This document shows positions 6,480 to 38,155 of a DNA stretch of 64,000 nt, piece by piece (position 1 is the stretch's first letter; each line of letters opens with the position of its first letter). The notes beneath the pieces were generated by a model. It saw only the letters and a list, made by a program, of their open reading frames with translations, was not told the origin of the DNA and did no database searches. The stretch lies in NCBI GenBank assembly GCA_963765205.1, contig CAVXVB010000007.1, positions 96,001 through 160,000 on the forward strand. The letters run 5' to 3'. The position numbers were made by a program, and so were the translations under genes. This DNA comes from an uncultured Verrucomicrobiae bacterium. GTDB taxonomy: Bacteria > Verrucomicrobiota > Verrucomicrobiia > Opitutales > JABDGR01.

Positions 6480-6556
6480 CCAACCGATCAAACCCATCCA
6501 ACCTAGCCAACGCAGCCAACCGAGCACTAACACTTTTTATTTTTCTGTGGTAAGGT
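6480..6556 (+). promoter_or_regulatory. Putative activator-dependent promoter: five 9-bp repeats, 20 nt, extended -10 (CTGTGGTAAGGT)
   Basis: ccaaccgat/caaacccat/ccaacctag/ccaacgcag/ccaaccgag at 6480-6524; CTGTGGTAA at 6545-6553; same layout at 38097-38155 (-). Confidence 0.55.
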
Positions 6557-6578
6557 GCATGGCGTCCCAAGACCGCCC

Positions 6579-7450
6579 ATGCCTTCCTCCGCCACTGCTT
6601 CCGCCAACGGCCGCACCCCGGTTGGCTCCGCCCCCGGCCCCGCGCCCTCGCCGCACTTCACGTGCGAGCGCATCACCAGCGACCGCCGCCTGCGCTTCAA
6701 CCCGATCCGGCATCTGTCGCCGGAGTCGCTGGCGCGGGCGCTCGACGCCTTTCATCTGGGCTACCTGCGGCCGGCGGCGCTGCTGTGGGATGCGATGGAG
6801 CGGCGCGACGACGTGTTGCAGGGGGTGGCGGCCAAGCGGAAGAAATCCGTCGCGCGGCTGGATGGGGAAATTCTGGCCGACGATGCTTCACCCGTCGCGC
6901 AACAACACCAGCGCGCGCTGGAGTTCTTTTATGGCAATCTGACCGCGACGCACGCCTGCGAACCCAACCAGCGCGGGGCCTGGCGCTGCTCGTCAAGCAG
7001 ATGCTCGATGCATTGGGCAAAAAATACGCCGTCCACGAAATTGTCTGGCAGCGTTGCGCGGCGCCGGCGGACTTTTCGAGCCAGGATGATTCCGCTTCCA
7101 ACTCGAAACTAAATTTACCGCGCACCATGCTGACGGCGACGTTTCGCTTTGCGCCGCTGTGGTTTTTTGAGGCGCGCTCCGGCCCGCTGCGATTTTTGCC
7201 GGATGAGCTGGCTTATGAAGGCGTGGACCTGGCGCCGGGCCAATGGCTCGTCACCGCCACCGATGGCTTGATGGAGAGTTGCTCCATTGTGTATTTATAT
7301 AAGCATCTGCCCTTGCGCGACTGGCTCATTTATTGCGAGCGCAACGGCATGCCCGGAGTGCGCGGAGTGACGGAAGCCGCGCCGGGCACGCCGGAATAGG
7401 AGGCGGCGCGCGAGGCCGTGCGCGATTTCGGCGCGGAGTTTTCCAGTCGC
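6579..7450 (+). pseudogene. Mu-like portal (gp29/DUF935-type) remnant
   Basis: ALLWDAMERRDDVLQGVAAKRKKSV, MLDALGKKYAVHEIVW and RDWLIYCERNGMPG motifs; frameshift ~6975, TAG at 7397-7399, truncated after DFGAEFSS. Confidence 0.7.
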
Positions 7451-7606
7451 GGCAACCGACAGTCATTCCTTGTTAAGGACGGAAAGATCGTCTGGTTGGA
7501 ACTGCAAGCCAGCACTGCTGAACAAGCGAACGATGTAAAAAAGGCCCTTGCCGCTCTAAAGACTCCCTCAATGTCAATGCCGACGAATTCGTCTACCGCT
7601 AAATAG
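7451..7606 (+). pseudogene. C-terminal remnant of a peroxiredoxin (BCP-like)
   Basis: RQSFLVKDGKIVWLELQASTAEQANDVKKALAAL, no catalytic N-terminus; GC drops at the junction. Confidence 0.5.
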
Positions 7607-7798
7607 CGTTGAGTGGTTTGGTGGCCATCAAATAGAAATAGACAAAAAGTTATTATAAACAATAATATATAATTTGTTTAATATTATTATACATATTTGA
7701 TGATTATCCAATACCTGAAATTTACTGATCCAAGTCGCCAAGCTACTAGGTTAAGACGCTATGGCCTAATAGGTTACGCGTTTAACCATGGGCGTAAA

Positions 7799-7977
7799 CC
7801 TGGACTTCAGTCCACGGAAGCTGGTCGGCGTTCCCCCGCGTCGCGTAGCGACGCTTGACGGAAGCGCAGCCGCGCGTTGGCGGGAACCTCAAGCGTCGCT
7901 ACGCGACGCACGGTGGAGGGCGTTCCGTTCCCATGGACTGAAGTCCATGGCTATTTTCGAGTCGTCACTCCGTGACT
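7799..7977. repeat. REP-like nested palindrome
   Basis: ctggacttcagtcca / tggactgaagtccatgg and gcgtcgcgtagcgacgcttga / tcaagcgtcgctacgcgacgc inverted pairs. Confidence 0.7.
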
Positions 7978-8071
7978 GCGCAAAACCCGAGATGAGCACC
8001 TAAATGCCCCTTGCCACCGTTCATTTTTTGCTTCTTGGGCGTTTGTGTGGTAGATTGCATCCTCTCACCCG

Positions 8072-8269
8072 ATGAATCTTCCCCAAATTATAGCTGAGGC
8101 TGGCCTTAACCAAGCTTCGCCGCTGATGCTGGCGGTGGTCGTCTTTATCGCCGTCGTGGCGCTAATCATCGCGGTCAAGGTGGCGGTTTTTATCATCCGT
8201 GTGATTTGCATCCTCGTTTGTCTCGCGCTAATCGGCGGGGTGGTCTGGCATTTGATGGGTGGGCTTTAA
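8072..8269 (+). CDS. Small membrane protein (2 TM)
   Basis: 65-aa hydrophobic ORF; upstream TGTGGTAGATT extended -10-like motif. Confidence 0.6.
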   Translation: MNLPQIIAEAGLNQASPLMLAVVVFIAVVALIIAVKVAVFIIRVICILVCLALIGGVVWHLMGGL

Positions 8270-8313
8270 GGTAGTCAGGAAAGAACATAGAATAACCCGA
8301 CCCCGTACGTCCC

Positions 8314-8805
8314 TTATTTGCTCGCCCAGACAATCTCCTTGAACCAACCGCCTCCTTTGAGGAACGTCAGTTCCCAGCGAAACAAGTATACAGGCCCTTT
8401 TGGCAGCACGAAATGTGCTCTAAGGGTGCTCTCGGTCTTGGGTTCCAAGATGCAACTAGGATATGTTTCATATGGATTCTGCTTGGTCACTAACTGAAGA
8501 TGCTGCCTGTTTTCTTCATTTAAGGGGCAGCTGCTCAGGTTTTGTGGAATGCTGTATGCTGACACTAAAATCTCTTTCGTATTGAGCTCGATAGGAGACT
8601 TGCCTCGGTTGTTCCATAAGGCACGAACCGTAACAACAACTGAAGCATTAGAAAGGTCATTTGAATCTATTTTTAAATCACCATCAAGTGACTCAATTTC
8701 AAATCGCTTCTTCAATACAAAGAGGTAAAAGGTCCAAATGCCGCCAATGATGATGGCGAAGGCTTCGACCCAATTCTTAACGATCTCTGAAATATCAGGA
8801 GGCAT
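8314..8805 (-). CDS. Low-GC hypothetical protein with N-terminal TM
   Basis: Clean ORF from ATG 8805; visibly lower GC than flanks. Confidence 0.6.
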   Translation of the reverse strand: MPPDISEIVKNWVEAFAIIIGGIWTFYLFVLKKRFEIESLDGDLKIDSNDLSNASVVVTVRALWNNRGKSPIELNTKEILVSAYSIPQNLSSCPLNEENRQHLQLVTKQNPYETYPSCILEPKTESTLRAHFVLPKGPVYLFRWELTFLKGGGWFKEIVWASK

Positions 8806-8867
8806 GGTGTTGTTTTGGATATTATGATTAAAGGCTAAAATCGCGGCGGGATTGATGAATTTCAAGT

Positions 8868-9833
8868 TTAAGAGGAATGAGCAGCGGCGGGCGCGGCGGA
8901 ATCGGCGGGTTTGGCGGCAGGGGCGGGGGCGTCAATTTTGGCGAGGAGGTCGAGCATGCGTTTCCAGGAGTCTTCGGCGGCTTTTTTGTTGGCGGCGTTG
9001 GTGTTGTCCAACTGGCCGAGGCGCATGAAGCCGTGGGCGGCGCCGGGATAAACAACGGCGTCGTAGGTTTTGCCGGCGGCTTTCATAGCGGTGGTTTCGG
9101 CGGGGACGGCGGCGGCGAGGTTGCGGTCGGTCTCGCCGTAGAAGCCGTAGATGGGGGCGTTGACCTTGGGCATGTCCGCGACGAGGAGCATGGGCGCGCC
9201 GTAGAACACGAAGGCGGCCTTGATGTCCTTGTTCACGGTCGAAAACGCGAAGGCCTTGCCGCCGCCCCAGCAAAATCCGGCGATGGCGAGGTTGCCGTCG
9301 CAGGCGTCCAATTTCTTGGCGTAGTCCATCACGGCGCCCAAATCGGCCAGGACTTGTTCCGGGGGCAACTTGCCGATGGCCACGGTGACTTGGGATTCAG
9401 GGAGGTCCGTCGTGCCGCCTTTGTTCGGGCCTTCGCCGGAGAGCAGGTCGGGGACGAGGACGATGTAGCCGGCTTCGGCGAGTTGGTCGGCGGCGGCGCG
9501 CACCCAATCGCTCAGGCCAAAAATCTCATGGACGAGGACGACGGCCATGGCTTTGTTTTTGTCCATCGGATAATAGACGAGGGTTTCCACTTCGCGGTCG
9601 CCCTGTTTGATTTTCACGACATCCATGTGCCGGGTGGATTTGGTGAGGCGGTCGGTGATGTTTTTGGAGATGGGGTGGACGATGGTGCCGGTGTTGGCGG
9701 CGGCGGCGGGCGCGGGGGCAGGCGCAGTCGCGGAAGCGGCGGGGGCGGCAGGCTGGGAAGTTTGGGCGAGGGCGAAGGCGGCGATGGCGCCAACGGCGAA
9801 GGCGGCGAGGATTTGGAGGGAGGGGGTTTTCAT
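8868..9833 (-). CDS. Secreted dienelactone hydrolase family protein
   Basis: HEIFGL, GFCWGG nucleophile motif, YPGAAHGF; signal peptide. Confidence 0.9.
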   Translation of the reverse strand: MKTPSLQILAAFAVGAIAAFALAQTSQPAAPAASATAPAPAPAAAANTGTIVHPISKNITDRLTKSTRHMDVVKIKQGDREVETLVYYPMDKNKAMAVVLVHEIFGLSDWVRAAADQLAEAGYIVLVPDLLSGEGPNKGGTTDLPESQVTVAIGKLPPEQVLADLGAVMDYAKKLDACDGNLAIAGFCWGGGKAFAFSTVNKDIKAAFVFYGAPMLLVADMPKVNAPIYGFYGETDRNLAAAVPAETTAMKAAGKTYDAVVYPGAAHGFMRLGQLDNTNAANKKAAEDSWKRMLDLLAKIDAPAPAAKPADSAAPAAAHSS

Positions 9834-10116
9834 GGGGAGCGGGGATTAAGAATTTTACCACAAAAAACGCAAAAGACACAAAAGGGGCAAAGGTGGGTCG
9901 GGACTGGAACTTACTCGATGACTAATGGGCAGCGGGGGATTGCGGCCAATTAAGCATTAATTTATGGCTTTGCCAAGTGCGGAGCGGCGGTTGGGTTTAT
10001 GGGATTATCCCCAGGAAAATTCGGGCGGGGTCAGTTTGAATCAAATTTGGCAAATTATCCGCCAGCCAAAAGGCATTGCCGGGGGGCAGGCTTTCGCGCT
10101 AGGGTGGGGGCGCGCC

Positions 10117-10950
10117 ATGTATCAACAGTTTTTCGGGTTCAAGGTGATGCCCTTCAACATCACCCCCGACCCCAACTTCCTCTACCTGAGCCCCACGCAT
10201 CAGGAGGCGCTCGCGCATTTGCGCTACGGGATGGCCCAGAAAAAGGGCTTCATCGTGCTCACCGGCGAAGTCGGCTGCGGCAAGACGACGCTGTGCCGCG
10301 TGTTCCTGAACGAACTCGACGCCGCGCGCACGGACACGGCGCTGATCCTCAACCCGCGCCTGACCGAGCGCGAGCTGCTCGCCGCGGTGTTGCGCGAGCT
10401 GGGCGAAATTCCGCCCGGCGCGGGCAGCGCGCCGCTGGCGCTCGACAACGCGGACCTGACCGGGCGGCTCAACGACGCGCTGCTGCGGCGCATTCGCGAC
10501 GGCAAGGACATCGTGCTCATCATTGACGAGGCGCAAAACCTCTCCTTTGAGGTCATGGAGCAAATCCGTTTGCTGTCGAATCTGGAGACGGACACGCAAA
10601 AACTGATGCAGATTATTTTGATCGGCCAGCCGGAGTTGAAGGCGCACCTCGCGGAGAAGCGCCTGCGGCAATTGCGCCAGCGCATTTTGGTTTTCTACGA
10701 ACTGCGCCCGCTCAAGCGCGCGCAGGTGGACGCCTATATCCAGCACCGCCTCACGCTTGCGGGCGCGAGCAGCCGGCCGCGCTTCACGAAGGCGGCGCTG
10801 CGCGCGATCAGCAGCCGCAGCCGCGGCATCCCGCGCCTGGTCAATTCACTGTGCGACAAGGCGCTGCTCGCGGCCTACGCGCGCGATTCGGAGGAAGTGA
10901 ACTGGTTCGACGTGCGCCGCGCGGCGAAAGACCAGGCGCAGTTGGACTGA
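10117..10950 (+). CDS. exeA: ExeA/GspA-type AAA ATPase
   Basis: MYQQFFGFKVMPFNITPDP, Walker A GEVGCGKTT, IIDEAQNL, GIPRLVNSLCD. Confidence 0.85.
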   Translation: MYQQFFGFKVMPFNITPDPNFLYLSPTHQEALAHLRYGMAQKKGFIVLTGEVGCGKTTLCRVFLNELDAARTDTALILNPRLTERELLAAVLRELGEIPPGAGSAPLALDNADLTGRLNDALLRRIRDGKDIVLIIDEAQNLSFEVMEQIRLLSNLETDTQKLMQIILIGQPELKAHLAEKRLRQLRQRILVFYELRPLKRAQVDAYIQHRLTLAGASSRPRFTKAALRAISSRSRGIPRLVNSLCDKALLAAYARDSEEVNWFDVRRAAKDQAQLD

Positions 10951-10954
10951 CCCC

Positions 10955-11302
10955 TCAGCGTGGCTTTTTCGGCGGGCGGGCCGGCGCGTGGCCGTAAGGG
11001 GCCGGGTCTTCGGCCACGCGCGGAGAGTCCAGCCGGGGCGCATCATAGGCCGACGCGGCCCGTTGCAGGGCATCCAACCGTTCGGAAATCCAATACTTGA
11101 TCATGGATTGCCGCGTGATGCCGAGGCGTCCGGCCTCGCGGTCGAGTGAGGCGACCATCCATTGTGGAAAGTCCACGTTGATGCGTTGCGCCTCGAGGCC
11201 CGGCCGGCGAGTAAGCGAGCGGTCTATATACGGAGTCATATCCACGCCGGCATCATGCAGGGCGTCGAGTTCTTCCGCGGTGAGTTGTTTTTTATTGGTC
11301 AT
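10955..11302 (-). CDS. brnA: BrnA-type (CopG/RHH) antitoxin
   Basis: RINVDFPQWMVASLDREAGRLGITRQSMIKYWISERL; start overlaps the toxin 3' end. Confidence 0.8.
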   Translation of the reverse strand: MTNKKQLTAEELDALHDAGVDMTPYIDRSLTRRPGLEAQRINVDFPQWMVASLDREAGRLGITRQSMIKYWISERLDALQRAASAYDAPRLDSPRVAEDPAPYGHAPARPPKKPR

Positions 11303-11555
11303 GATAACGCTCCTTTTCATATTTGCGCACGCGACGAACAGAGATCAGGCGGATGTTTTCTCCGCGATTGGTGAAAATGGCGGACCAAAGCGTGTCACCA
11401 ACCAGACCCACCATCTGGAATCTTGGCTCGGAAGGATTGGGCATGATGTCTTCGACGCGCTTCTCGTCCGCCCAGATAGCTTGGGCCTCGACAAAATCAA
11501 TCCCATGGTTGATTTTATTCGAGGCCGACTTGGCTGGATCAAACTCGAAGGGCGT
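11292..11555 (-). CDS. brnT: BrnT-family toxin (absent from ORF track; begins at ACG)
   Basis: Manual translation (T)PFEFDPAKSASNKINHGIDFVEAQAIW...IRLISVRRVRKYEKERY; in-frame TAA directly precedes ACG. Confidence 0.8.
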   Translation of the reverse strand, partial: TPFEFDPAKSASNKINHGIDFVEAQAIWADEKRVEDIMPNPSEPRFQMVGLVGDTLWSAIFTNRGENIRLISVRRVRKYEKERYHDQ

Positions 11556-11668
11556 TTATAGTATAGAAATAGCATACTTTTGGTGTATGTCAAGGGCTTT
11601 TTCGGCACAATTTGATTGACCTTTAATTCGACTGAACGATGATGTAAACTACCAACACAACACCTGCC

Positions 11669-12991
11669 ATGAGCCTGATCAGCGATGCCCTGAAGAAAGC
11701 CGAGCGCGACCGGCAGGCCGCGCAGGCGGCGGCCCAGGCGCCGGTGGCCGCACCACTGCCCCCGCCAGCCGCGCCTCCACCCACACCACAGCCCGTGGTG
11801 GTGACGCCGGCTCCCGCGCCCCTCAAGGTTGCGCCCAAGGTTCCGACGCCGATCCCGCTCCCGGTTAAGACGGTGCCGGCCCCGGTCGCGGCGAAGGTCG
11901 CGCCAGCAATAGTTGAGTCCGTGGAGATCGAGCCCAAAAAGTCGCCTGTGCGCGCGACGAATCGCCGGCCGATGATGTTTGCAGGCATCGGACTGTTAGT
12001 CGTGTTATTCGGATTGGGAGCGTATTTCCTGCTTCAGAGTGGAAATCCGCCGGAAAATGCTCCGCCGGTGAAAGTCGCGGCGAACCCGCCGCCGAAACCC
12101 GCCGCGCCCACGCCACCGCCGGCCATGGTTGCCGCGCAACCCGTGGCCCCGCCGCCGCTGCGACGCCCGATTGAAACGCCCCCACCCGCCATCAACGTTG
12201 CTTCGACCCCGGCGACGCCCACATCGGTTCCGGTGGTCGCGTCAATGCCTGCGCCCTTGCCGCCACCACCCAAACCGCAACCCGAACTGGCGATGGATAA
12301 TAAGCCGACCGAGCCGGTGGTTGCTGCGCCTGCGCAGCCGCCGGAGCAACCTCCAGCGCCTGTGGTGGCCATCTCGACTCCGCCTATTTCGACTCCTGCG
12401 CCTGTTGTAAGTCCTGCGGCTGTTTCCACGCCTGCGCCTGTTGCGGTCTCGCCCCCCGCGCCGGCTCCTGCGCCGGTCGTGGCCAGTTCGACGCCGAGCG
12501 TCGCACCGACTCCCGTTACGCCCGCACCCACGCCAATTTCGCCCGTTTCACTCCCGCTCCCGCCCAGCCCAGTGCCGACACAGGTTGCTTCGAGTCCTCC
12601 GCTGCCCATGCCCACGGCGACAGTGCCCGCTGCGACTTCGCCGACCGCGCCCATGTCCAGCCCGGTGCCACAGCCGGCACCCGCAGCGGTGCCGATTCCC
12701 GCCGTGGTTGCGCCACCGATGGTGGCGGTGGCCGCGCCGCCAGTCGCTCCCGCTATTCCGGCGGCTGCGCCCGCCGGCCCGAATCCCGCCGCGCAAGCCT
12801 TCGTGGATCAAATGCTGATCAATGGCGTGATGCTGGGCGCCGCCAATTCCCAACGCATTCTGGTGAAAGGCCAAACTTTCGGCAACGGCGATTTCGTAAA
12901 CCATGATTTGCAGTTGAAGCTCGCCGCCGTATTGCCGCACGATATTATTTTTGTCGATGGGTCCGGAATCCAATACCACAAGCGATACTAA
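11669..12991 (+). CDS. ExeB/GspB-like Pro-rich membrane protein
   Basis: MSLISDALKKAER start, TM helix, long Pro linker, small beta C-terminal domain; follows exeA. Confidence 0.7.
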   Translation: MSLISDALKKAERDRQAAQAAAQAPVAAPLPPPAAPPPTPQPVVVTPAPAPLKVAPKVPTPIPLPVKTVPAPVAAKVAPAIVESVEIEPKKSPVRATNRRPMMFAGIGLLVVLFGLGAYFLLQSGNPPENAPPVKVAANPPPKPAAPTPPPAMVAAQPVAPPPLRRPIETPPPAINVASTPATPTSVPVVASMPAPLPPPPKPQPELAMDNKPTEPVVAAPAQPPEQPPAPVVAISTPPISTPAPVVSPAAVSTPAPVAVSPPAPAPAPVVASSTPSVAPTPVTPAPTPISPVSLPLPPSPVPTQVASSPPLPMPTATVPAATSPTAPMSSPVPQPAPAAVPIPAVVAPPMVAVAAPPVAPAIPAAAPAGPNPAAQAFVDQMLINGVMLGAANSQRILVKGQTFGNGDFVNHDLQLKLAAVLPHDIIFVDGSGIQYHKRY

Positions 12992-13757
12992 TCCGAAGCC
13001 GCGGCTGCAAATTGCGCGCCCCAAGGAGGCGCCGGCCGCGCCGGAACCGGCATCGCCCGCCCCCGCGCCGGCCCCACCCGCCGCGTTGCCGCGCTTTGCC
13101 TTTGCCCGAAAAAAGGTCGTCGAGGAAGCGCCGCCCGCATCGCCCCCGACGGCGGCAGCACCGCCACCCGTGCCCCCGCCCGGGCCGGCCCCTGGGCGGC
13201 CCGCCTCCGGTTCGTCAGGCCTGCCGCTGAAACGCCCGCCGCCCGGCTCGCCGCTGATGGCGGCCAATGAACTCGCCGCACCCGATGGGCTGCAAACTGG
13301 GCCGTTGACGCGCGCCAGTTCGGCCACGCCATTTTCGGCCAAAGCGAAATCCAGGCCGGCGCCGCGCAGCCAGGTGCCGTTGCTGATCATTCTTGGCCTC
13401 CTGGTGTTGATCGTCGGGGGCGAATCCTACTATATTTTGATGCAGGATCAAAAGGACGCGGCCATCATCCAGGCCACGCCGCCGGTGGTCATCGGCGGCA
13501 ATGCGCCCGCGGCCAAGCCAACGGAAATCACCGCGAACGGCCCGGCGGAAACCGCCGCAGCCAAATATTTGCGGGCCATGCGGGTGGATTTTGTGGACGC
13601 CGGAGCCAGCCCCAAGCTGTCGGTCGGCGGCCAGATTTTTGAGCCGGGCCAAATTGTGGACAAGTCGACGGGGTTGAAATGGATGCTGATTGACGACAAG
13701 GCGCGACAATTGGAATTCGTGGATGGGCAGGGGCGGCACTACCTCATAAAATTTTAA
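12957..13757 (+). CDS. Pro-rich TM protein with GspB-like C-terminal domain
   Basis: C-terminus (GQIFEPGQIV...LEFVDGQGRHY) resembles that of the preceding gene. Confidence 0.55.
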   Translation: MGPESNTTSDTNPKPRLQIARPKEAPAAPEPASPAPAPAPPAALPRFAFARKKVVEEAPPASPPTAAAPPPVPPPGPAPGRPASGSSGLPLKRPPPGSPLMAANELAAPDGLQTGPLTRASSATPFSAKAKSRPAPRSQVPLLIILGLLVLIVGGESYYILMQDQKDAAIIQATPPVVIGGNAPAAKPTEITANGPAETAAAKYLRAMRVDFVDAGASPKLSVGGQIFEPGQIVDKSTGLKWMLIDDKARQLEFVDGQGRHYLIKF

Positions 13758-13868
13758 CGGGGTAAAGGGAGGGGGTGGGCGACATATGGAAATTTAATGT
13801 TTCCGCTCTAGCTTTTCCAGCGGGGACGGCTAACGTAGGGCCTTTCCGTCTTTTTACCCAACCCTGTC

Positions 13869-16670: not shown

Positions 16671-16676
16671 GGGGGA

Positions 16677-16764
16677 GGGACAGAGGGACAGAGGGACAGA
16701 GGGACAGAGGGACAGAGGGACAGAGGGACAGAGGGACAGAGGGACAGAGGGACAGAGGGACAGA
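16677..16764 (+). repeat. (GGGACAGA)x11 tandem repeat; left arm of composite element to ~16910
   Basis: 11 units counted; followed by TTCAGCAATCAG core and an inverted CTCTGTGCCTCTGCTCCTTTGTCCC arm. Confidence 0.95.
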
Positions 16765-29111: not shown

Positions 29112-29249
29112 GAGGGTGCTTTATTATAATGACACCGCCGAAGCTGCAAACTACACAAACCCATGCCAAAGGGCGGGCGATAGAGGCGTTTCTGGAGGGT
29201 AGGGACGCCCTACCGTGCGTTGATTAAATTGCTGACGATATTACCGCCC

Positions 29250-31388
29250 TCAGGGCGGGCTGGTCGAACTTCGCTGCGGCAGGGTTCCGGCGGTCGGCGT
29301 GGCCGCGAAGGCCAGCGGCGAAATTGTCGCCGTCGGTTGCATCGCCGGCGCGGCGGAGATCTTGGTGCCGTCGGGTTTATACAAGGAATTCAATTCGAGG
29401 CGCAGGTAATCATACATGATGCCGTTGGTGAGGGGGCCGGCGCGGATGGTGAGCTGGATGTTGTTGTCGCCGGCCTTGAGCATTCCGGCGTCAAAGGTCA
29501 CGTCGCGCTCGGTCCAATAGCCGCCGATGCTGTCGCGGCTGGTGGCGTTGATGTAGCGCAGGCGGTTGACAGTGGTGACGGCCTGGCTGTTGGCGGCGAC
29601 GTTAATGACGGTGTTGTTGCCTGCCCCGCAAATCGCTAGGCGCAGGATCGCCGAGCCGACCGGCGCGGTGTCGAGGTGGAAATTGATGGTCCAGGTGGTG
29701 GCGCGGCCCTGGGTATCGCTATTGGCGCCGTCGAAGCTCTCGACGTGCGGCACCTGCTCGAAGAACCAGTCTTTTTTATAATCACTTTTTCCGATGGTGT
29801 AATTTACGTCGTTGGGGAAGAGCTTGGCATACTGGATATACCAGCCCCAGTGCCAGAAGTTGTCGCCGTCGAGGAACTCCGAGCCGAAGCGGTTGGGGAT
29901 GCCGATGTCCCAGACTTGGGTGCCGTAGCGCACGGGCTGCCAGTTGAGTTTGCCGAGATCGAGGGTCTGGCCTTCGGCGAGGGTGACGTTAGCCTTGGCA
30001 TATTCGCCGAGGACGCCGTCGGCGATGGCGTGGAGTTCATAGGTGCCGGGCCGCACTTTCGGGATGGTGAACTGGCCGTTCTCGTCGCCGCGGACCCAAA
30101 ACTCATAGTGCTTGGCGTCCTTCTGCCAGTCCTGGCCGCTGTCGTCGGTAGTTTCATCGGGATAGGTGAGGCCCACAAAAAGGTTCGGCAGCCTGGTCGT
30201 TTTCGCCTGCGGGTCGTTGAGCACGAGCTGGCCGGTGACGGTGGCGCGCTGGGCGGCGTGCGGGTAATCCACGCCGTTGACCCACTCGTAGGGCCACGCG
30301 GTGTTTTCCTTCTGCGCCTGCTGGAGGGCGTCAAGGAAGAGGGCGTTCGAGTTGTCCGCGACGTCGGCCGAGGGCTGCGCGACGGAATTGCAATAGAGAT
30401 AAATCGGGCCGACGACCTTGCTCCAGACCTCACCGGCGGCGACGTTGCAGTTGCAGCCGCCGTAGTGGGTGCCTTTCCAGTAGTCGAGGATGAGCGGGTC
30501 GCCGCCGGTATTGTCGTCGAGGTGGCAATCTAGTTCGTCCTTGGTGACGCCGCCGCCGAGGAATTCAATGGTGGGGTTGATGAACCAGAAGCCGAGGTGC
30601 TGCTTGGTGCTCGACCAGCCGAAGGCGGGGGTGAAGAACTGGTAGCCGCAGTAATCGTATTTGTGTTCGACCTGGCCCTGGTGGATGCCGGTGTTGAGGT
30701 AGCGCGCCTCCTTCATGCCGCCCATCTGCGTGCCGGCGTCCCAGTCCGCGCTGGTCGCCATGAGCAAATTGCGGTTTGCGTCCACGCTCAGCCAGTCGAA
30801 AATCGCGGGGTTGAGTTTCGTGCCGTAGCGGTTTTCGCCCATGGAGGCGCCGCCCATGTCGGCGGTGTGCGAGTAAATGGCGTAAGTGTAAACGCCGCTT
30901 TCGCCGCGGCCCATCGCATAGCGCACTTCCTGAATGAAGTTGCCGCTCGGGCCTTTGACGGAAACCTCGGCGCGCGCGCCGGCGTTGCTGGCCGGGTCAA
31001 TTGTCACGGAGGCGACTGCGCGGCTGGGGTTGGTTTCCCAATAACCGGCGGGCACGCCGGAGTTGTGGCCCATCAAATCCAGGCCGTGATACATGAGCGT
31101 CGTCATATGGCCGTTCGATTTGCTGATGGTCGCGGTGACGACGCCGTTGCTGAGGACGTAGTTTTGCGCGTCCTGCGTAATCGTCACCGGCTGGCTGACG
31201 ACGGGCGCGATGGCGGGGAGCTGGCCGAGATGGGGAATCGGCGGGACGGGAATGCCGGGCACGGCGGGCTGGGGCAGCGGCCCGGAGTAAGCGGCGGGAG
31301 TAGATTGGGCGGCGAGGGTGGCTGCGCCAAAAAGGGCGGCGATGGAAATTAGGAACAAAACACGAAGGTAACTGAACGGGAATTTCAT
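29250..31388 (-). CDS. Second PL4 rhamnogalacturonan lyase
   Basis: VEHKYDY, GFWFINPT, VRPGTYELHA, YDYLRLEL; paralog of 572..2740. Confidence 0.85.
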   Translation of the reverse strand: MKFPFSYLRVLFLISIAALFGAATLAAQSTPAAYSGPLPQPAVPGIPVPPIPHLGQLPAIAPVVSQPVTITQDAQNYVLSNGVVTATISKSNGHMTTLMYHGLDLMGHNSGVPAGYWETNPSRAVASVTIDPASNAGARAEVSVKGPSGNFIQEVRYAMGRGESGVYTYAIYSHTADMGGASMGENRYGTKLNPAIFDWLSVDANRNLLMATSADWDAGTQMGGMKEARYLNTGIHQGQVEHKYDYCGYQFFTPAFGWSSTKQHLGFWFINPTIEFLGGGVTKDELDCHLDDNTGGDPLILDYWKGTHYGGCNCNVAAGEVWSKVVGPIYLYCNSVAQPSADVADNSNALFLDALQQAQKENTAWPYEWVNGVDYPHAAQRATVTGQLVLNDPQAKTTRLPNLFVGLTYPDETTDDSGQDWQKDAKHYEFWVRGDENGQFTIPKVRPGTYELHAIADGVLGEYAKANVTLAEGQTLDLGKLNWQPVRYGTQVWDIGIPNRFGSEFLDGDNFWHWGWYIQYAKLFPNDVNYTIGKSDYKKDWFFEQVPHVESFDGANSDTQGRATTWTINFHLDTAPVGSAILRLAICGAGNNTVINVAANSQAVTTVNRLRYINATSRDSIGGYWTERDVTFDAGMLKAGDNNIQLTIRAGPLTNGIMYDYLRLELNSLYKPDGTKISAAPAMQPTATISPLAFAATPTAGTLPQRSSTSPP

Positions 31389-31512
31389 GGGGCAACGGGG
31401 GTGGGAAAAGATAATTGTAGTGCGGAGGCGGCGTCCGGCAAGCTTGCAGTGGAGCGGGTGAAATGGGGAGGGTGGAGTGGGGAGTGCAGCAGGGGTGATT
31501 GGGGTGCGAGGG

Positions 31513-31659
31513 GATTTGAGATTTCAGTTTTCAAAACTCAAAACTCAAAATGCAGAATGCAAAATGAAAAATGAGGAATGAGGAATGAGGAATGAGGAAG
31601 GCAGAATGTGAATCTTGAACTCGAAACTCGAAACCTGGAACCCGAAACCCGAAATCCGA
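31513..31659 (+). repeat. 21-unit heptamer array with drifting sequence
   Basis: gatttga...aaactca...gaatgag...aactcga...aacccga in continuous 7-bp register. Confidence 0.85.
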
Positions 31660-31783
31660 AACTAACCCGCCCAATGGCCGCTCCCGGCCCTCGTTACCCG
31701 GCTTGGAGAGCAGGTGAACACCCCATGTGGGCAGGTCCGATTGCGGTTCTGTTGGGCGCGATTCGATGCGAGAATACGCGCGA

Positions 31784-33542
31784 ATGAAAAAGTACCCGCG
31801 CCCAACCCGCCGCCCCGGCCACCTTGTTGCCCAAATGCCGCACAGGCATCCAGGGCTTGGATGAAATCACCGGTGGCGGGTTGCCGCGCGGACGGCCCAC
31901 GCTGGTGTGCGGCGGCGCGGGTTGCGGCAAGACGCTCCTCGGCGCGGAGTTCCTCGTGCGCGGCGCGACGCTGTTCAATGAGCCGGGCGTGTTGATGGCC
32001 TTCGAGGAGACCGAAGTGGAGATGAAGGCCAATGTCGCCTCGCTCGGTTTTGATCTGGCGGGCTTGGTCCGGCGCAAAAAAATTTTGGTGGACTATGTGC
32101 ATATCGAGCGCAGCGAAGTCCAGGAAAGCGGCGAGTATGACCTCGAGGGATTGTTCGTCCGGCTCAATCACGCGATTAATTCCATTGGCGCCAAGCGCGT
32201 GGTGCTGGACACGCTCGAGGCCTTGTTTGCCAGCCTGCACAACGAAGCCATCCTGCGCGCGGAGTTGCGCCGGCTCTTCCGCTGGCTCAAGGACAAGGGC
32301 GTGACCGCCGTCATCACCGCCGAGCGCGGGCGCGAGCAATTTACCCGCCACGGGCTGGAGGAATACGTGTCCGACTGCGTCATCCTGCTCGACCACCGCG
32401 TCAATGACCAGATTGCCACGCGGCACCTGCGCGTGGTCAAGTATCGCGGCGCGCTGCACGGCACCAACGAATTTCCCTTCCTCATCGGCGAGACGGGCAT
32501 CAGCGTGCTGCCCATCACGTCGCTGGGTCTGAACCACAAAATCTCGAGCGAGCGGATTGGCACCGGCATCCCCCGGCTGGACGCCATGCTGGGCGGGAAA
32601 GGGTTTTTTCGCGGCAGCAGCATTTTGCTGACGGGCACGCCCGGCACGGGCAAGACCATTGTCGCCGCCAACTTTGCGCAAGCCGCCGCCCGGCGCGGGG
32701 AACGCGTGCTCTTCTTCTCCTTCGAGGAATCGCCCAATCAAATCATCCGCAACCTGCATTCCATTGGGTTGCGCCTGGAGCCGCTGGTCAAGAAAGACTT
32801 GCTGCGTTTCCACTCGGCGCGGCCTTCGCTTTACGGCTTGGAAATGCACCTGGCGACGATGTTTAAGGAAATCGACGCGTTTCAACCCGCCGTCGTCGTC
32901 ATAGACCCGATTACCAGCCTGATGGACGCCGGCACCGACTCCGAAAGCAAGGGCATGGTGACCCGGCTGATTGATTATCTCAAGGGCAGCCAAGTCACTT
33001 CGCTGTTCACGAGTTTGACCCAAGGCGGCCACGCGCTGCAACAAAGCGAAATGGCCATGTCCTCGCTGATGGACTCCTGGCTGTTGTTGCAGGACTTTGA
33101 AGGCAACGGCGAACGCAACCGCGTGCTCTACGTGCTCAAGGCGCGCGGCATGGCCCACTCAAACCAAATCCGCGAGTTCCTGATTTCCAACCGGGGCATT
33201 GACCTCGTGGACGCCTATATCGGCCCCAGTGGCGTGTTGACCGGCTCCGCCCGCGTGGCCCAAAGCGCCCTCGAAAAAGCCGGCATTCTCGCCAGCCACC
33301 AGGAAGCCGCCCGCCGCAAGCGCGAACTCGAGCACAAACGCGAGGCGCTCGAACGGCAAATCAGCGGCTTGCGCTCCGAGCACGAAGCCAGCGCCGACGA
33401 ACTGCGGCAAATTGACGAGCAGGTTGGCACGCAAACGCGTTTGCTGAAGACCGAGCGGACGGAGTTGGGGCGCTTGCGCCAGGCGGATGTCGCGGTCGCG
33501 GGCAGCGCGGTTGGCAAACACCGCAATGGGAGGCGAAACTAA
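31784..33542 (+). CDS. kaiC: Circadian clock-family ATPase KaiC (KaiC2-like); ATG 31784 out of frame by one A, ORF track start TTG 31824
   Basis: Two Walker A motifs GGAGCGKT and GTPGTGKT, two FEE motifs, [22 protein letters not shown] at the phosphosite position. Confidence 0.95.
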
Positions 33543-33871
33543 TGAAAGCCAAAACAATAAAACGACCCGCCGCCGGCTCCCCTCGCCCGCGTGCCAAATT
33601 CTGGCAACTGCGTCTTTATGTGATGGACCAGACGCCCAAATCCGTGACGGCCTTTTCCAACCTCAAGAAAATTTGCGAAAGCCACCTCAAAGGCCGCTAT
33701 CGCATCACCGTGATTGATTTGCAGAAGCACCCCCATCTGGCCAAAGGCGACCAAATCCTGGCCGTGCCCACGGTCGTGCGCAAGTTGCCGATCCCCGTGC
33801 GCATCCTCATCGGCAACCTTTCCGAAACCGACCGCCTGCTGGTCGGCCTGGATTTGCGGCTGGCGGATTAA
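33542..33871 (+). CDS. kaiB: KaiB
   Basis: [34 protein letters not shown]. Confidence 0.92.
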
Positions 33872-33886
33872 CCGAGACGAACGCGC

Positions 33887-34234
33887 GTGAAAAACAGCAA
33901 AACCAGAAACCCGGCGGCGGCGAAGGCCCGGCCCCCCCGGCCCGAGGGCCAATACGTTTTGCGGCTCTTCGTGGCGGGGGCCACGACCCGCTCGCGTGAA
34001 GCGGTCCTGCGCGTCCGGCAATTATGCGCCGTCGAATTGCAGGGCAACTGCCAACTCGAAGTGATTGACATCTATCAACAGCCCGAGCTGGCGCGCGCCA
34101 ACCAGATCGTCGCGACCCCGACGCTGATCAAGGAATTTCCCCGGCCGATCCGCCGGTTCATCGGCAACCTGCTCAACCTCACCGGCCTGCTGGTCGAGAT
34201 GGATTTGAACTCCGCAGCTAAAAGCACCGTTTGA
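33887..34234 (+). CDS. kaiB: Second KaiB-like protein
   Basis: YVLRLFVAGATTRS, QIVATPTLIKEFPRPIRRFIGNL. Confidence 0.88.
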   Translation: MKNSKTRNPAAAKARPPRPEGQYVLRLFVAGATTRSREAVLRVRQLCAVELQGNCQLEVIDIYQQPELARANQIVATPTLIKEFPRPIRRFIGNLLNLTGLLVEMDLNSAAKSTV

Positions 34235-35493
34235 AAGCCCGCCGCCATAAGGGTTCAGCCCACCCCAAGCCGTCCCGCGAACTCGCGGAACTGCGGCTCC
34301 GCCTGGCCGACGCGGAGGAAACCCTCCGCGCCATTCGCACCGGCGAGGTGGACACGGTGCTGGTCGCGGGGAGGCAAGGCCCGCAAGTGTTCACGCTGCA
34401 AGGCGCCGAGCACGCCTACCGGATGCTCATCGAATCCATGAACGAAGGGGCGCTGACGCTGACGGCGGACAAGACGATTCTTTACGCCAACCAGTGTTTC
34501 GCCCGCATGGTTCAATGTCCGCTCGAGCAAGTGATGGGCAGTTCCTTTCGCCGTTTCCTCTCGGCGGAGGATTTGGCCGCCTTCCGGCCCCTGCTGAAAC
34601 GGGCCGGTCAATCCGGCGCAAAAATCCAGGTGCGATTGAAAGTTGCCGACGGCTCGCAAATGTCGGCGCAAATCTCCATTCGCCGGCTGCGCAAAAATGG
34701 CTATACGCGTGCCCCCGTCGGCCTCGTGGTGACGGATCTGACGGAGGCCCGGCGCACTGAGGAACTCCTGCGGGCGTTGACCCACCGCGTGGTGCAAGTG
34801 CAGGAGGCCGAGCGCGGGCGCGTGGCCCTTGAACTGCACGACAACATCACCCAACTGCTGTGCGCCATTCTCTTTCGCAGCCAGGCGCTGGCGGACAGTC
34901 TGTCCGTGCGCGAAGGGCCGGCGAAGCAGGAGGCGATGATCCTGCGCGAGCTGCTCGGCCAGACGGCCGCGGAAGTCGAGCGCATCTCGCGCAATCTGCG
35001 GCCCGGGGTTCTGGATCAACTGGGTCTGGCCGCCGTTTTGGGCGCCACCAGCACGGAATTTGCGGCGCGGACGGGGGTGTTGGTCAAGCTGGCCTGTGTG
35101 GAACTGACCGCGCGGTTGCCGGTCGACACCGAGTTGGCGCTCTACCGCATCCTCCAGGAAGCCTTGAACAACGTGGAGCAGCACGCCAGCGCCCGCCACG
35201 TCGAGGTACACCTGACCAAGCTGGGCGATCTCGTGCAGTTGGTGATCCAGGATGATGGGGACGGCTTTGATTCGGATGACCACCCGGCCCGACGGAAAGG
35301 CAAGGGCGACCTCGGCCTGCTCAGCATGCGCGAGCGCGCGACCTACGTGGGGGGCGCGCTCACGGTCAAATCCGGCCGCCGCCATGTCGGCACGGAAATC
35401 AAGGTGCGCATTCCGCTGCCGCCCACGGTGGTGGCGGTCGGGGCGCGCAGCCCGGCGCGGGGCCGCTTCAAGCAGGAGAACAAGAAAAAATGA
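34231..35493 (+). CDS. Cytoplasmic PAS histidine kinase (HisKA_3 type)
   Basis: PAS LIESMNEG..ILYANQ; ERGRVALELHD; QEALNN..QDDGDGF..LGLLSMRERA. Confidence 0.9.
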   Translation: MKARRHKGSAHPKPSRELAELRLRLADAEETLRAIRTGEVDTVLVAGRQGPQVFTLQGAEHAYRMLIESMNEGALTLTADKTILYANQCFARMVQCPLEQVMGSSFRRFLSAEDLAAFRPLLKRAGQSGAKIQVRLKVADGSQMSAQISIRRLRKNGYTRAPVGLVVTDLTEARRTEELLRALTHRVVQVQEAERGRVALELHDNITQLLCAILFRSQALADSLSVREGPAKQEAMILRELLGQTAAEVERISRNLRPGVLDQLGLAAVLGATSTEFAARTGVLVKLACVELTARLPVDTELALYRILQEALNNVEQHASARHVEVHLTKLGDLVQLVIQDDGDGFDSDDHPARRKGKGDLGLLSMRERATYVGGALTVKSGRRHVGTEIKVRIPLPPTVVAVGARSPARGRFKQENKKK

Positions 35494-36176
35494 GCGTGGC
35501 GAAACAGATCACCGTCCTCCTGGCCGAAGATCACATCGTCGTCCGGCAGGGATTGTGCGCGCTGCTAAAGCTGGACGGGGATTTTAAAATTGTGGGCGAG
35601 GCGCGAACGGGCCGCGAAGCGGTGCAACTGGCGCAGGCCCTGCGGCCGGATGTCATCCTGATGGACATTGCCATGGCGCTGCTCAATGGCCTGGAGGCGA
35701 CGCGGCAAATTCTCGCCGCCCAGCCGGCCGCGCGGGTGCTCATTTTGTCGGCGCACAGCGACGATGCGTATGTCGAGCGCATGAACGCGGTCGGCGCGGC
35801 CGGGTTCCTGGAAAAACAGTCGTCGGGCAAAATTCTGGCCCAGGCGGTCCACGCCGTCGCGCAAGGCAAAGCCTTTTTCAGCCCCGCCATCGCCCGGCGC
35901 CTGCGGCATAACCAAAACCAACCGGGTGGCCGGGCCGGCCTGCGCAAGGCCAAGGGCGCCCTGCTGACGTCCCGCGAAGCCGAGGTGCTGCAACTGGTGG
36001 CCGAGGGCGCGGCCAACAAACAAGTCGCGGCGGAACTTGGCCTCAGCATCAAGACGGTTGAGAAGCACCGGCAGAGCCTCATGAGCAGGCTCAACCTCCA
36101 TGACACCGCCGGCCTGACCCGCTATGCGATCGCCACCGGCGTCATCGAGTGCAGTGTGCAATTGACCATTGTGTAG
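35490..36176 (+). CDS. NarL/LuxR-family response regulator
   Basis: REC domain (AEDH, LMDIAM) plus LTSREAEVLQLVAEG..KTVEKHR. Confidence 0.92.
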   Translation: MSVAKQITVLLAEDHIVVRQGLCALLKLDGDFKIVGEARTGREAVQLAQALRPDVILMDIAMALLNGLEATRQILAAQPAARVLILSAHSDDAYVERMNAVGAAGFLEKQSSGKILAQAVHAVAQGKAFFSPAIARRLRHNQNQPGGRAGLRKAKGALLTSREAEVLQLVAEGAANKQVAAELGLSIKTVEKHRQSLMSRLNLHDTAGLTRYAIATGVIECSVQLTIV

Positions 36177-36202
36177 CCGCCGGCGGTGGTGGGTCGTTTT
36201 GC

Positions 36203-36337
36203 AGGGCGGCGTGGGGAATCAGGGACAAAACACGGGGGTAAATCAACGGGGATTTCATGGGGGCAACGCGGGGGGTGGGGAAGGGTAATTGTAGTGTGCG
36301 AGCGTCGCCCGGCAAGCCCGCAGTGGGGGGGTGGAAA
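36203..36337 (-). repeat. Degenerate copy of the PL4 5' end/promoter (31333-31463)
   Basis: Shared acaaaacacg..ggta..aacggg.atttcatggg..taattgtagtg..cggcaagc..gcagtgg. Confidence 0.8.
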
Positions 36338-36505
36338 AAAGTACTAATTTGCAGGCGCTAATTCTACGGTTGGATTTTCGCTGATCTCCAGACAGGACAA
36401 TTTCGTCAGCTTTTCCCATTGAATCAGGTTATTGCCGTCGCAAAACTGTTCCCGGAATGAGTTCGTGAAGCTAGGGGAGGAAGAGCATGGGACGGAAGGA
36501 GCAGA

Positions 36506-36601
36506 GGGACAAAGGGACAAAGGGACAAAGGGACAAAGGGACAAAGGGACAAAGGGACAAAGGGACAAAGGGACAAAGGGACAAAGGGACAAAGGGACAA
36601 A
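36506..36601 (+). repeat. (GGGACAAA)x12 tandem repeat; composite element to ~36770
   Basis: 12 units counted; followed by TGAATATTCAGCAATCAGCATTCAGAACTCAGCAAT core. Confidence 0.95.
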
Positions 36602-36773
36602 GGCGACTGAGGATGGGAAAGGGGTGGGGAATTTGATTTTTGCGAGCCTTAACCGAACCGAGCTGCCCGCGAGTTGTTATGAATATTCAGCAATCAGCAT
36701 TCAGAACTCAGCAATTAGTCTTGGCCCATCAGTCGCCTCAGTGCCCTTAGTCGCTTCAGTCGCCTCGGCCGCT

Positions 36774-37178
36774 TCATCCCATAATGTGCAATTCCCGCTC
36801 CAATTGTTCGCGCATTTCCGCGGGCAGGCCGGGATTTTGCACCAGAACCTGGAGTGCTTTTTCCGCCGCGACGTGACGCGCGCTGAGTTGCTCTTCATAT
36901 TCACGGGTATCGTGTTCCAACTTCTTCAAGCCCTGGGCGCTTTGCGCGAGTTTGGAGATGGCACCGGCCACGGTGTTCAGGTCGGTGAGTTTCGGTTTTT
37001 TGCCTTTCCAGCGGGTCAAAAGGTCGAAAAGGAATTGCCAGGTCATGGTCAGCGCCTCGCTGGCGTATTCGTGGCCGGGGCCCAGCAAGCGAACCGCTTC
37101 GTCGGTCTGGCAGCGGGCATTGCGCAAGTGGTCCGGATGCTCGGCGAACGGCGCGGGGGTGGCGGTTTTTTTTGCTAT
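36774..37178 (-). pseudogene. Mu gp27/DUF3486-like protein; expected start codon reads ATA
   Basis: Helical protein ending GLPAEMREQLERELHIMG; TAAcATA junction with the upstream gene; gene order. Confidence 0.45.
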
Positions 37179-37179
37179 G

Positions 37180-37448
37180 TTAAATCAAGTGTTCGGCTTC
37201 AAGATAATCGCGGCCGGCGGCGGTGAGGCGGGCGCGGGGGAGGCCGCGGGAGAGGGCGGCGGGGACGATTTCCAGGAGATTTTTTCCGGCGAGGTAGTCC
37301 AGCTCGGCGGCGAGGGCGTCCTCCGCGAGGCGAAAGCCGGCGAGGAGGACGCCGTGGCGGAGGGTGGCGGGGGCAGGGAAGCGGGCGCGGCGGCGGCGAG
37401 CTGGCGCAGGAGGGCGTGGCGCAGGAGCAGGTGTTGTTCGGGGGACAT
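37180..37448 (-). pseudogene. Mu gp26-like small protein, frameshifted near 37370
   Basis: Joined translation LLRHALLRQL...AELDYLAGKNLLE...RLTAAGRDYLEAEHLI. Confidence 0.55.
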
Positions 37449-37665
37449 GGGAGGGGGAAGTGTTTTGGTTTTCTGGTGCTTGGTTGCTTGGTTCTTGGTT
37501 TTGGAGATGGTTTCTTCAAATGGGCTTAATCCGGAGCGCGGTGCTTCAGCCCGCGCTCTACATCGTTGTTGGTTAGAAGCGCGGGCCAAAGCACCGCGCT
37601 CCGGAAGGCTGGATGAATGGATTCATGAGGTGTCAAGAGAGGTTTTCGTGTCGGTAATACGTCGC

Positions 37666-38082
37666 TCAGCCTTCCGCGTTCCGGGCGCCGCGCTCGATGA
37701 GGCGGTCGAGTTTGGCGTCGAGGTGGTGGAGGCGCTGGGTGAGGAGTTCGGCTTCTTTTTGCAGGGCGGCGACGCCGCGTTCGAGGGCGCGGATGCTTTC
37801 GTAAACTTTTTCGCGGGAGGTGGCGGAGGCGCGGTGGTTGTCCTCGGCCTTGCGCTCGAAGTCGGCGACGAGGCCGTCGAGGCGGGCGTCGAGGTCGGCG
37901 AGGTTTTCGCGGGAGGCATATTCCTTGTGGAGGGGCGGGACCGGGTCGGGCTGGCGCAGGTGGCCCTTCCACAGGTCGAGCGCGTGCTTGAGCGCGACCA
38001 GGATGGCGGCGGTGATGACAAAGTATTGGTAGTATTCGGTCGCGCCGGGGTCGCCGGCGGCCGGGAGGGCGGAGGGATTCTT
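37666..38082 (-). CDS. Mu gp25/DUF2730-like TM plus coiled-coil protein; no ATG (AAG at the likely start)
   Basis: TM YFVITAAILVAL, EYASRENL, coiled coil ending LDAKLDRLIER; first gene of the triplet. Confidence 0.5.
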   Translation of the reverse strand, partial: KNPSALPAAGDPGATEYYQYFVITAAILVALKHALDLWKGHLRQPDPVPPLHKEYASRENLADLDARLDGLVADFERKAEDNHRASATSREKVYESIRALERGVAALQKEAELLTQRLHHLDAKLDRLIERGARNAEG

Positions 38083-38096
38083 GCGGGAAATGGGCG

Positions 38097-38155
38097 AGTT
38101 TACCACAGGTTGCGTCTTTTGGGAAATGATGCGTTGGTTGCGTTGGATAGGTTTG
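38097..38155 (-). promoter_or_regulatory. Putative promoter: three 9-bp repeats, 20 nt, CTGTGGTAAACT
   Basis: caaacctat/ccaacgcaa/ccaacgcat on the minus strand; same spacing as 6480-6556. Confidence 0.55.

Follow-up and report, generated by a model that had tools for sequence, protein, structure and literature searches.

The 64,000-nucleotide (nt) stretch of DNA considered here (hereafter the window) comes from an uncultured Verrucomicrobiae bacterium of the order Opitutales (assembly GCA_963765205.1, contig CAVXVB010000007.1, positions 96,001 to 160,000) and holds two groups of decayed Mu-like phage genes, a portal gene and a gp25-gp26-gp27 triplet, each preceded by a tandem array of 9-bp repeats. 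The window is a relic that exposes the control element of a system still living in related genomes. This system is a cluster of phage-derived virion genes marked by its gene content, its single copy, its co-divergence with the host, purifying selection, the promoter geometry before its operon and the co-occurrence of a candidate regulator of 124 amino acids (aa). By genomic criteria it works like a gene transfer agent (GTA), belonging neither to the RcGTA family nor to the Mu-like prophages. We consider that it probably forms a Mu-derived, GTA-like particle switched on by binding of the regulator to the repeats, and gene transfer is the function that we favour for it to the same degree.

The repeat promoter in the window and in the source genome

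The two promoters of the window are composed of the following elements:

6480..6524, + strand: five 9-bp direct repeats (C[CA]AACnnAn) that span roughly -83 to -39 relative to the portal transcript start, a putative binding site of the winged helix-turn-helix (wHTH) regulator
6528..6556, + strand: sigma70-type core of the portal promoter, with a weak -35 (TAACAC, 6528-6533), 17 nt and an extended -10 (TG, 6548-6549; TAAGGT, 6551-6556)
38129..38155, - strand: array of the packaging operon, with three 9-bp repeats; G002, G004, G006 and G008 also have it ahead of gp25
38097..38125, - strand: sigma70-type core of the packaging promoter, with a weak -35 (TTCCCA, 38125-38120), 17 nt and an extended -10 (TG; TAAACT, 38102-38097)

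A first-pass annotation, made from the letters of the window, had noticed that both arrays are followed by 20 nt and then by the word CTGTGGTAA, and inspection of the sequence found arrays, gaps and words where it had placed them (CTGTGGTAA at 6545-6553 of the + strand for the portal promoter, and at 38108-38100 of the - strand after the 38155-38129 array for the packaging promoter). The full pattern of that annotation occurs exactly twice in the 4.02-Mb assembly of the source genome (G000), both times within the window, and the three-unit repeat pattern matches the window four times versus none in 100 shuffles. The word itself proved to be a poor choice for the conserved part and was rejected as the motif: CTGTGGTAA has eight genomic copies, only two of them behind arrays, and at the place of CTGTGGTAA/CTGTGG the orthologous portal promoters read ATCGTA-TAAGCT (G002) and ATCTG-TACAGT (G006). 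Nor is the motif restricted to two loci, since G000 carries about 18 copies (15 found by rule and 3 added).

What is conserved is a geometry. G000 has 14 arrays of at least three units, and a TAnnnT -10 hexamer lies exactly 26 nt past the last unit in 11 of them, versus no more than 2 of the 14 at each of the other offsets between 15 and 39. Among 49 pattern-selected sites drawn from G000 and nine relatives, spacer position 4 (-35) is T in 48 and position 25 (-14) is G in 38, and an ATG lies 5-11 nt downstream of the -10 in 16. The conserved unit thus begins with a CCAACnnAn array of 9-bp period, which is separated by 3 nt from a weak -35; a further 17 nt lead to an extended -10. This -35/-10 geometry, together with the ATG codons shortly after the -10, points to promoter function, and the arrays very likely form the promoter of the phage-derived cluster.

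Decay in the window and intact loci in relatives

The phage genes remaining in the window are the following:

6579..7459, + strand: Mu-type portal pseudogene, with a base lost near 6969, an in-frame TAG at 7397-7399 and homology ending at about residue 276 of 420
37666..38082, - strand: gp25-like gene with a membrane segment and a coiled coil, in which AAG replaces the start codon of the G002 orthologue
37184..37448, - strand: gp26-like gene with a frameshift near 37366, the orthologue of which matches phrog_436
36774..37178, - strand: gp27-like small terminase gene, starting with ATA and without the N-terminal segment of prophage gp27

The portal identity, first proposed by likeness, is borne out by Portal_Mu (PF06074, E 1.6e-19) and that of gp27, weakly, by the terminase small subunit family phrog_426 (E 1e-4) and PF11985 (E 0.006). 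The first-pass annotation was also right that this copy is decayed, as all four genes (portal, gp25, gp26, gp27) are pseudogenes. Downstream of the portal, deletion has removed the genes for protease, cement, capsid, connector and tail tip, and the large terminase (TerL) gene that follows gp27 in relatives is likewise deleted; tblastn found none of these genes in the assembly, which is 92% complete. A scan of genome contigs with the window gp27 gave one weak, unrelated locus. An assembly error behind the portal frameshift is unlikely, given that it is bridged without differences by contigs of two studies, X1 (6748-7477), which may be the source sample, and X3 from another study (6848-7059). 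The ratio of nonsynonymous to synonymous substitution rates (dN/dS, NG86 method throughout) of the window portal against relatives is still 0.06-0.11 (5 pairs), so that its decay must be recent.

The family set comprises ten genomes, G000 and nine relatives. The strict promoter pattern is present in all ten and in none of 31 others, Portal_Mu in nine of the ten and terminase in seven of the nine relatives. In the relatives two separate operons are intact and promoter-led, one with gp25-26-27 and terminase, the other with the head genes (portal, protease, cement, capsid, connector, tail completion, fibre, hub). The portal has the same upstream host gene in G000, G001, G002, G004 and G005, host neighbours being partly conserved, and its array is conserved in G001, G002, G004, G005, G006, G008 and G009. 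A third family locus, after metF, consists of a cI-like gene facing the 124-aa gene; the array aims at the latter in five of eight family loci (G001, G003, G004, G005, G006), and in G000 the array is degenerate and the repressor lost.

Four pseudogenes, and a CTGTGG match between the two copies that is not conserved, could be explained by a prophage that simply broke up and was dispersed by rearrangement, its motifs matching by chance. This explanation is refuted by the relatives, whose orthologues are intact, syntenic and promoter-led, and conflicts with the recent decay of the window portal and with the order-wide single copy, co-phylogeny and dN/dS described below, which leaves it scarcely any probability. 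The same orthologues uphold the earlier preference for a domesticated multi-locus system over a simply broken prophage, and the earlier statement that each piece has its own promoter copy, since the portal/capsid and terminase operons of the relatives are separately led by the motif. The dispersed layout that was then described is real in this family, but most other families have a single operon and the split is derived.

Distribution, vertical inheritance and selection in Opitutales

An even sample of 301 Opitutales genomes was surveyed. Of these genomes, 134 have the capsid, 138 the terminase and 127 the 124-aa regulator, mostly in single copy and family by family, these counts including some true prophage matches; 105 genomes have all three genes. 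The regulator is accompanied by the capsid in 110 genomes, versus 17 with the regulator only, 24 with the capsid only and 150 with neither, kin among the 301 genomes not being independent. The cluster is a single host-flanked operon in most families and is split in three lineages, the source family, f17 and f2, the last with a diverged motif. It is kept in genomes of 0.7-1.0 Mb, and is intact and host-flanked in a single-contig genome of 878 kb. Queried across the phylum, the capsid was found in 22 of 251 genomes, the matches outside the order being mostly weak; it matched neither GenBank phages nor PDB sequences, and is annotated merely as a hypothetical protein in the cultured strains Ruficoccus sp. 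ZRK36 (P0002), Rubellicoccus peritrichatus (P0001) and Opitutia bacterium KCR 482 (P0007).

FastTree phylogenies with local supports indicate co-divergence with the host. For capsid and RpoB of 44 genomes, all 21 capsid splits with a support of at least 0.95 are found in the RpoB tree, 26 of 41 splits overall are common versus at most 3 in 1000 label shuffles, and none of 2000 permutations reached the patristic correlation of 0.45; one capsid of this set (G052) belongs to a prophage and the result is unchanged without it. The prophages are not cleanly outside the clusters in the capsid-only tree. With TerL, portal and capsid concatenated, 34 clusters (PH_G007, an empty row, not counted) form one clade (0.90) separate from 10 prophages, and 20 of 22 strong splits agree with RpoB. 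Over capsid, portal, TerL and regulator, dN/dS is 0.03-0.26 (45 of 50 pairs estimable): 0.03-0.26 for the capsid (15 of 18), 0.05-0.11 for the portal (13 of 14), 0.06-0.24 for the terminase (10 of 11) and 0.06-0.23 for the regulator (7 of 7). The two estimable pairs out of five gave 0.07 and 0.38 for the hub. The purifying selection by which a GTA is recognised is thus present in the relatives and absent from G000, where the genes are broken. Vertical inheritance, seen in the capsid and concatenated trees alike, is an outcome that the first-pass annotation had named as support, purifying selection in relatives is the result of the dN/dS check that it had proposed, and the cluster is almost certainly domesticated and vertically inherited.

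Gene content of the cluster

The gene content of 35 clusters was compared with that of 11 prophage loci. MuF and MuG are absent from all 35 clusters, versus presence in 8 and 6 of the 11 prophage loci, and a tube-like gene, so labelled by its position and a weak alignment to prophage genes, was found in 3 clusters and 2 prophage loci. A single-sequence fold of the tube-like protein was unusable (predicted local distance difference test, pLDDT, 32) and a profile search of PDB sequences returned nothing for it. The cluster gene maps leave no room for a tape measure, the corresponding tblastn query being weak and finding only 1 of the 11 prophage loci. Of the 35 clusters, 24 encode a hub/Tal-like protein, the predicted structure of which is like that of the hub/GPD proteins of phage tails, and 21 encode a fibre; the hub gene is also missing from some clusters of f11 and f13. 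The G007 cluster has a Pam3-gp28 holin, and the first gene of other clusters is a tentative holin-like candidate. Outside the domesticated clade, a compact Mu-like element (L180, G044:C74) has a winged-helix gene divergent from a late operon without MuF and MuG, possibly a parallel reduction.

The clusters have no replication or integration module of their own. A MuA query, which remote transposases could escape, matched 18 of the 301 genomes and 8 of the 105 full carriers, the MuA gene standing at other loci wherever positions could be compared.

Capsid-forming satellites borrow functions of helper phages, and the cluster could likewise be a helper-dependent head module in which heads and tail tips are made by the cell and tubes and lysis are borrowed from infecting Mu-like phages. 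The missing tube and tape measure, the lack of any endolysin found and the co-occurrence of related Mu-like prophages in some carriers would suit it. Such dependence is nevertheless improbable in view of the host-flanked position of the clusters, with no integrase, primase or attachment context, their co-divergence with RpoB, and the lack of any MuA match in families such as f3 (0/17), f7 (0/18) and f19 (0/14).

The promoter outside the source family

For 28 clusters outside the family, the 2.6 kb preceding the terminase was scored with a promoter matrix trained on G000, as were 564 control windows. Scores of at least 25 precede 10 of the 28 clusters and occur in none of the controls, and scores of at least 20 precede 14, versus 2 controls; the clusters that reach the higher threshold show that seven further families retain the geometry. 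All four split f2 clusters have a diverged form 73-89 nt before the portal, with scores no higher than those of controls. Of nine prophages tested, two also have a promoter variant ahead of their late operon, which suggests that the promoter is of phage origin. The two-unit pattern matched 1 of 15 chosen genomes, a looser form recovering more, and the strict pattern gave 50 matches in IMG/VR, nearly all simple repeats and none followed by a cluster gene.

The genome G058 (f17) is an independent repeat of the layout first described in the window: its cluster is in three pieces (the holin-like gene, gp27 to capsid, and connector onward), each with its promoter, and about ten further copies stand before host genes. 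In the 1.3-Mb genome G034 (f26), ten copies of a CAAAC variant were noted, one directly before the terminase operon, so that this genome represents a third lineage with an expansion of the module.

A candidate regulator of the repeat promoters

The model of the 124-aa protein (pLDDT 75.7) predicts, with middling scores, a MerR-like wHTH fold of the Xis/BldC type, closest to Pukovnik Xis (Z 7.3, root mean square deviation (rmsd) 1.7, 54 residues aligned) and BldC-whiI (Z 6.8, rmsd 1.8, 52 aligned), P2 Cox and RdfS scoring lower. Unlike these proteins, it carries an additional helical region at the C-terminus, conserved over about residues 71-121, and it has no Pfam match. BldC is described as binding 9-bp direct repeats at whiI and forming head-to-tail filaments (PMC11963761), and Cox as activating P4 PLL through repeated 9-nt boxes (PMC3936717), head-to-tail binding to repeated sites having transcriptional effects in both cases; the Cox boxes are spaced 10-11 bp apart, versus 9 bp for the Opitutales repeats. 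By analogy, we lean slightly towards the winged-helix protein being the activator of the repeat promoters, which would make these activator-dependent, as the first-pass annotation had proposed. Homologues occur in six fetched prophage loci, in an early operon before MuA/MuB-like genes according to three gene maps, and the host would appear to have kept the early switch and late promoter of the phage and dropped transposition. G019 has two regulator paralogues (L155, L156), one with a cI-like gene and a small open reading frame (ORF), the other facing a different DNA-binding gene.

Orphan promoter copies and stand-alone gp27 genes

The genome scan proposed in the first-pass annotation gave a divided answer, as the motif does precede the portal/capsid and terminase operons of the relatives but most family copies stand before host genes. 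Since these places are not conserved, the motif alone does not mark a member of a regulon. Of the 38 sites found in relatives, 5 precede portal or gp25, 2 precede the regulator locus, another 2 adjoin the same host gene as a G000 site and the other 29 are elsewhere, two of these 29 leading stand-alone gp27-like genes. Many copies end, 70-180 nt downstream, in an array of 10-bp period and an A-tract, and the same tail follows stand-alone gp27-like genes; G000 has ten such 10-bp arrays, versus none in three shuffles. The orphan copies look like gene-less versions of a promoter-gp27-tail cassette; they could be inert, could rewire host genes or, given a possible likeness to phage pac sites, could mark starts of packaging. 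The gp27 of clusters is, by alignment, short of about 60 N-terminal residues that are present in the prophage and stand-alone forms (median 120 aa in 17 clusters versus 201 aa in 3 prophages).

Several features of these copies were noted in passing. Three G000 cassettes (C1:9607-10534, C12:23149-24322, C9:363231-364135) combine a small ORF, presumably KTSC-like, with a stand-alone gp27/DUF3486-like gene and end in a 10-bp array, without the 9-bp promoter. Two G003 copies (L016, L017) lie about 50 nt before a palindrome that is parS-like by the consensus we assumed, whereas G000 has four parS-like sites, none of them preceded by an array. G000 (C9:1070548-1070715) and G006 (L005) share a short coiled-coil ORF that lies under the promoter and, in G006, is apparently leaderless; it may be a further member of the system.

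The module could also be mainly a selfish or neutral intergenic repeat, the operon being split by chance and the winged-helix protein repressing or not binding. The turnover of gene-less copies between genomes, the near-identical 80-nt block common to the G058 copies and the tail of 10-bp array and A-tract speak for it. This is a rather unlikely explanation, however, when the sole genome-wide match in G011 and G019 (single- or two-contig assemblies) is the cluster promoter, all 16 genomes with at least three two-unit matches carry capsid, terminase or regulator, and the geometry is retained before clusters of seven further families and, as a variant, before the late operon of two prophages.

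Proposed mechanism and the nature of the particle

In the mechanism that we propose, an ancestor of a large part of the Opitutales would have domesticated a Mu-like prophage, which would subsequently have lost transposition, MuF/MuG, the tape measure and usually the tail tube. The virion operon would have been kept, with a holin-like gene, gp25, gp26, the shortened small terminase, the large terminase and the portal, as well as protease, cement, capsid, connector and tail-tip parts. A separate switch from the phage early region would also have been kept, in which a cI-like repressor faces a small ORF and the Xis/BldC-like winged-helix protein. The latter would polymerise head-to-tail on the 9-bp repeats beside the weak -35 and recruit sigma70 RNA polymerase, and a repeat promoter reading towards its own gene, antisense through the repressor, would produce positive feedback in a subpopulation. 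With the shortened small terminase, the headful motor would fill short-tailed particles with host DNA taken at random, as a GTA does. The promoter, a portable module of about 80 bp, would have permitted the splitting of the operon into pieces with their own promoters in the source family, f17 and f2, and G000 would recently have lost the particle, the regulator and about 16 orphan promoter copies persisting.

A number of findings weigh against this scheme. The system is known from genomes alone, and no particle, packaged DNA, transcript or binding has been observed. The promoter scores below 25 in 18 and below 20 in 14 of the 28 non-family clusters, though those genomes keep the regulator, and the matrix search found none in G154, f13 and several f7 and f39 genomes, nor before the f2 terminase operons. 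The two-unit pattern occurs in 37 of 160 carriers versus 10 of 141 non-carriers, a reversed control matching 33 of 301 genomes. The f17 copies often have a near-consensus -35 (TTGACG), with which repression fits as well as activation, and 29 of the 38 sites of relatives are at places not common with G000, which a conserved regulon would not predict. The fold Z-scores of the regulator are below 8, a range where chance matches occur, and Foldseek returned no match for its model at E of 0.001 or less. The concatenated tree has one strong conflict with RpoB (f7/f37/f3) and weak deep branches. Pfam alone cannot separate the two gp27 forms, since the match to PF11985 was confined to its C-terminal part for one prophage gp27 as well. 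Lastly, the holin is present in only some clusters, no endolysin was identified in the clusters (no genome-wide search for one was made), and the delivery of DNA without tube and tape measure is not obvious.

In another reading, the cluster is domesticated and co-regulated without being a GTA, its stub-tailed heads serving as decoys, for the release of DNA or nutrients, or as carriers towards a eukaryotic host. The near-absence of the tube, the lack of a tape measure and, in some f11 and f13 clusters, of the hub are in line with it, as is retention in genomes of 0.7-1.0 Mb, reduced symbiont families being reported among the Opitutales (10.1101/2025.05.29.656868). Purifying selection on TerL, portal and shortened small terminase implies, however, that DNA is packaged, and the retention of the hub/Tal-like protein and fibre in most clusters implies docking on cells. 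We regard these other roles as a minority possibility and retain the GTA-like particle as the probable product of the cluster. A fuller version of that reading, which we put forward tentatively, would be of an independently evolved GTA that descends from a transposable Mu-like phage, has a stub tail devoid of a tube, is kept in about 40% of the sampled Opitutales, in genomes as small as 0.7-0.9 Mb, and is under one Xis/BldC-like switch; its portable 80-bp promoter would repeatedly have split the operon and captured host genes, and the gene-less copies, with their phased 10-bp repeats and A-tract, would be dispersed packaging-start sites read by stand-alone gp27-like proteins with a DNA-binding head.

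Surroundings of the remnants in the window

The features flanking the phage genes are the following:

3264..5877, + strand: host gene that in relatives precedes the head operon, a synteny anchor identified by tblastn of the G001 neighbour and blastn with the G001, G002 and G005 loci
38649..39707, + strand: pdhA, a host gene divergent from the packaging operon and next to it in G000, G002 and G008, a second synteny anchor
38173..38455, strand not assigned: short tandem-repeat module upstream of the packaging promoter

The gene at 3264-5877, which has no Pfam match and which we take to be AsmA-like, is broken into two frames near 4400; the X1 contig is one base short at 4404, so that the split may reflect either a difference between strains or a fault of the assembly. 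A module related to that at 38173-38455 is found at 36505-36713, so that the gp25-26-27 triplet is bracketed by direct repeats (8-bp arrays and a shared block of about 35 nt), and the endpoint of the terminase deletion adjoins one of the two modules. The expected place of the terminase is occupied by a kaiC-kaiB-PAS kinase-LuxR response regulator block (31824-36176), and in G006 (L010) an orphan promoter copy faces a response regulator similar to that of this block. Two paralogous family-4 rhamnogalacturonate lyase genes (572-2740 and 29250-31388) lie 27 kb apart.

Comparison with known systems and significance

Like RcGTA and CcGTA of Alphaproteobacteria, the cluster is a host-maintained set of head and tail genes without replication genes; in these GTAs, accessory and regulatory genes are described elsewhere on the chromosome (PMC11150451). 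The small terminase without N-terminal DNA-binding part is a further likeness to RcGTA, the TerS of which is reported to be without the N-terminal helix-turn-helix, a feature proposed by the authors to explain random packaging (PMC6854486). Unlike in RcGTA, the portal (PF06074) and protease (PF10123) of the cluster are of Mu type, the tape measure is absent, the tube usually so, and the hosts belong to another phylum; these Mu-type proteins set it apart from the RcGTA family without direct comparison to RcGTA proteins. Its candidate activator, an Xis/BldC-like winged helix on 9-bp repeats, also differs from GafA and GafYZ. With the Mu-like prophages of Verrucomicrobiota (G004:C11, G080:C24, G254:C23) the clusters share the late order gp25-26-27-TerL-portal-protease-cement-capsid and, in the early region, a repressor facing a winged-helix gene. 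Those prophages are, unlike the clusters, contiguous and sporadic (MuA in 18/301), and they keep MuA/MuB, MuF, MuG and a longer gp27 and portal; a contiguous genome with MuA/MuB, which defines a Mu-like transposable prophage, was not found at the clusters.

A literature search covering titles and abstract starts found no description of this system, and the promoter code, the candidate activator and the splitting of the operon appear to be new. Few independent GTA lineages are known, and their discovery is described as limited by the difficulty of telling GTAs from prophages (PMC6854486). The cluster provides a candidate GTA in Verrucomicrobiota, with a Mu-type ancestor and a named switch, and a 120-aa gene and a defined promoter make the formation of particles and the nature of their cargo directly testable. 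Its retention in genomes below 1 Mb bears on the reasons why reduced bacteria keep GTA-like machinery, and its repeated splitting by promoter duplication suggests a route by which a multi-locus GTA regulon can arise.

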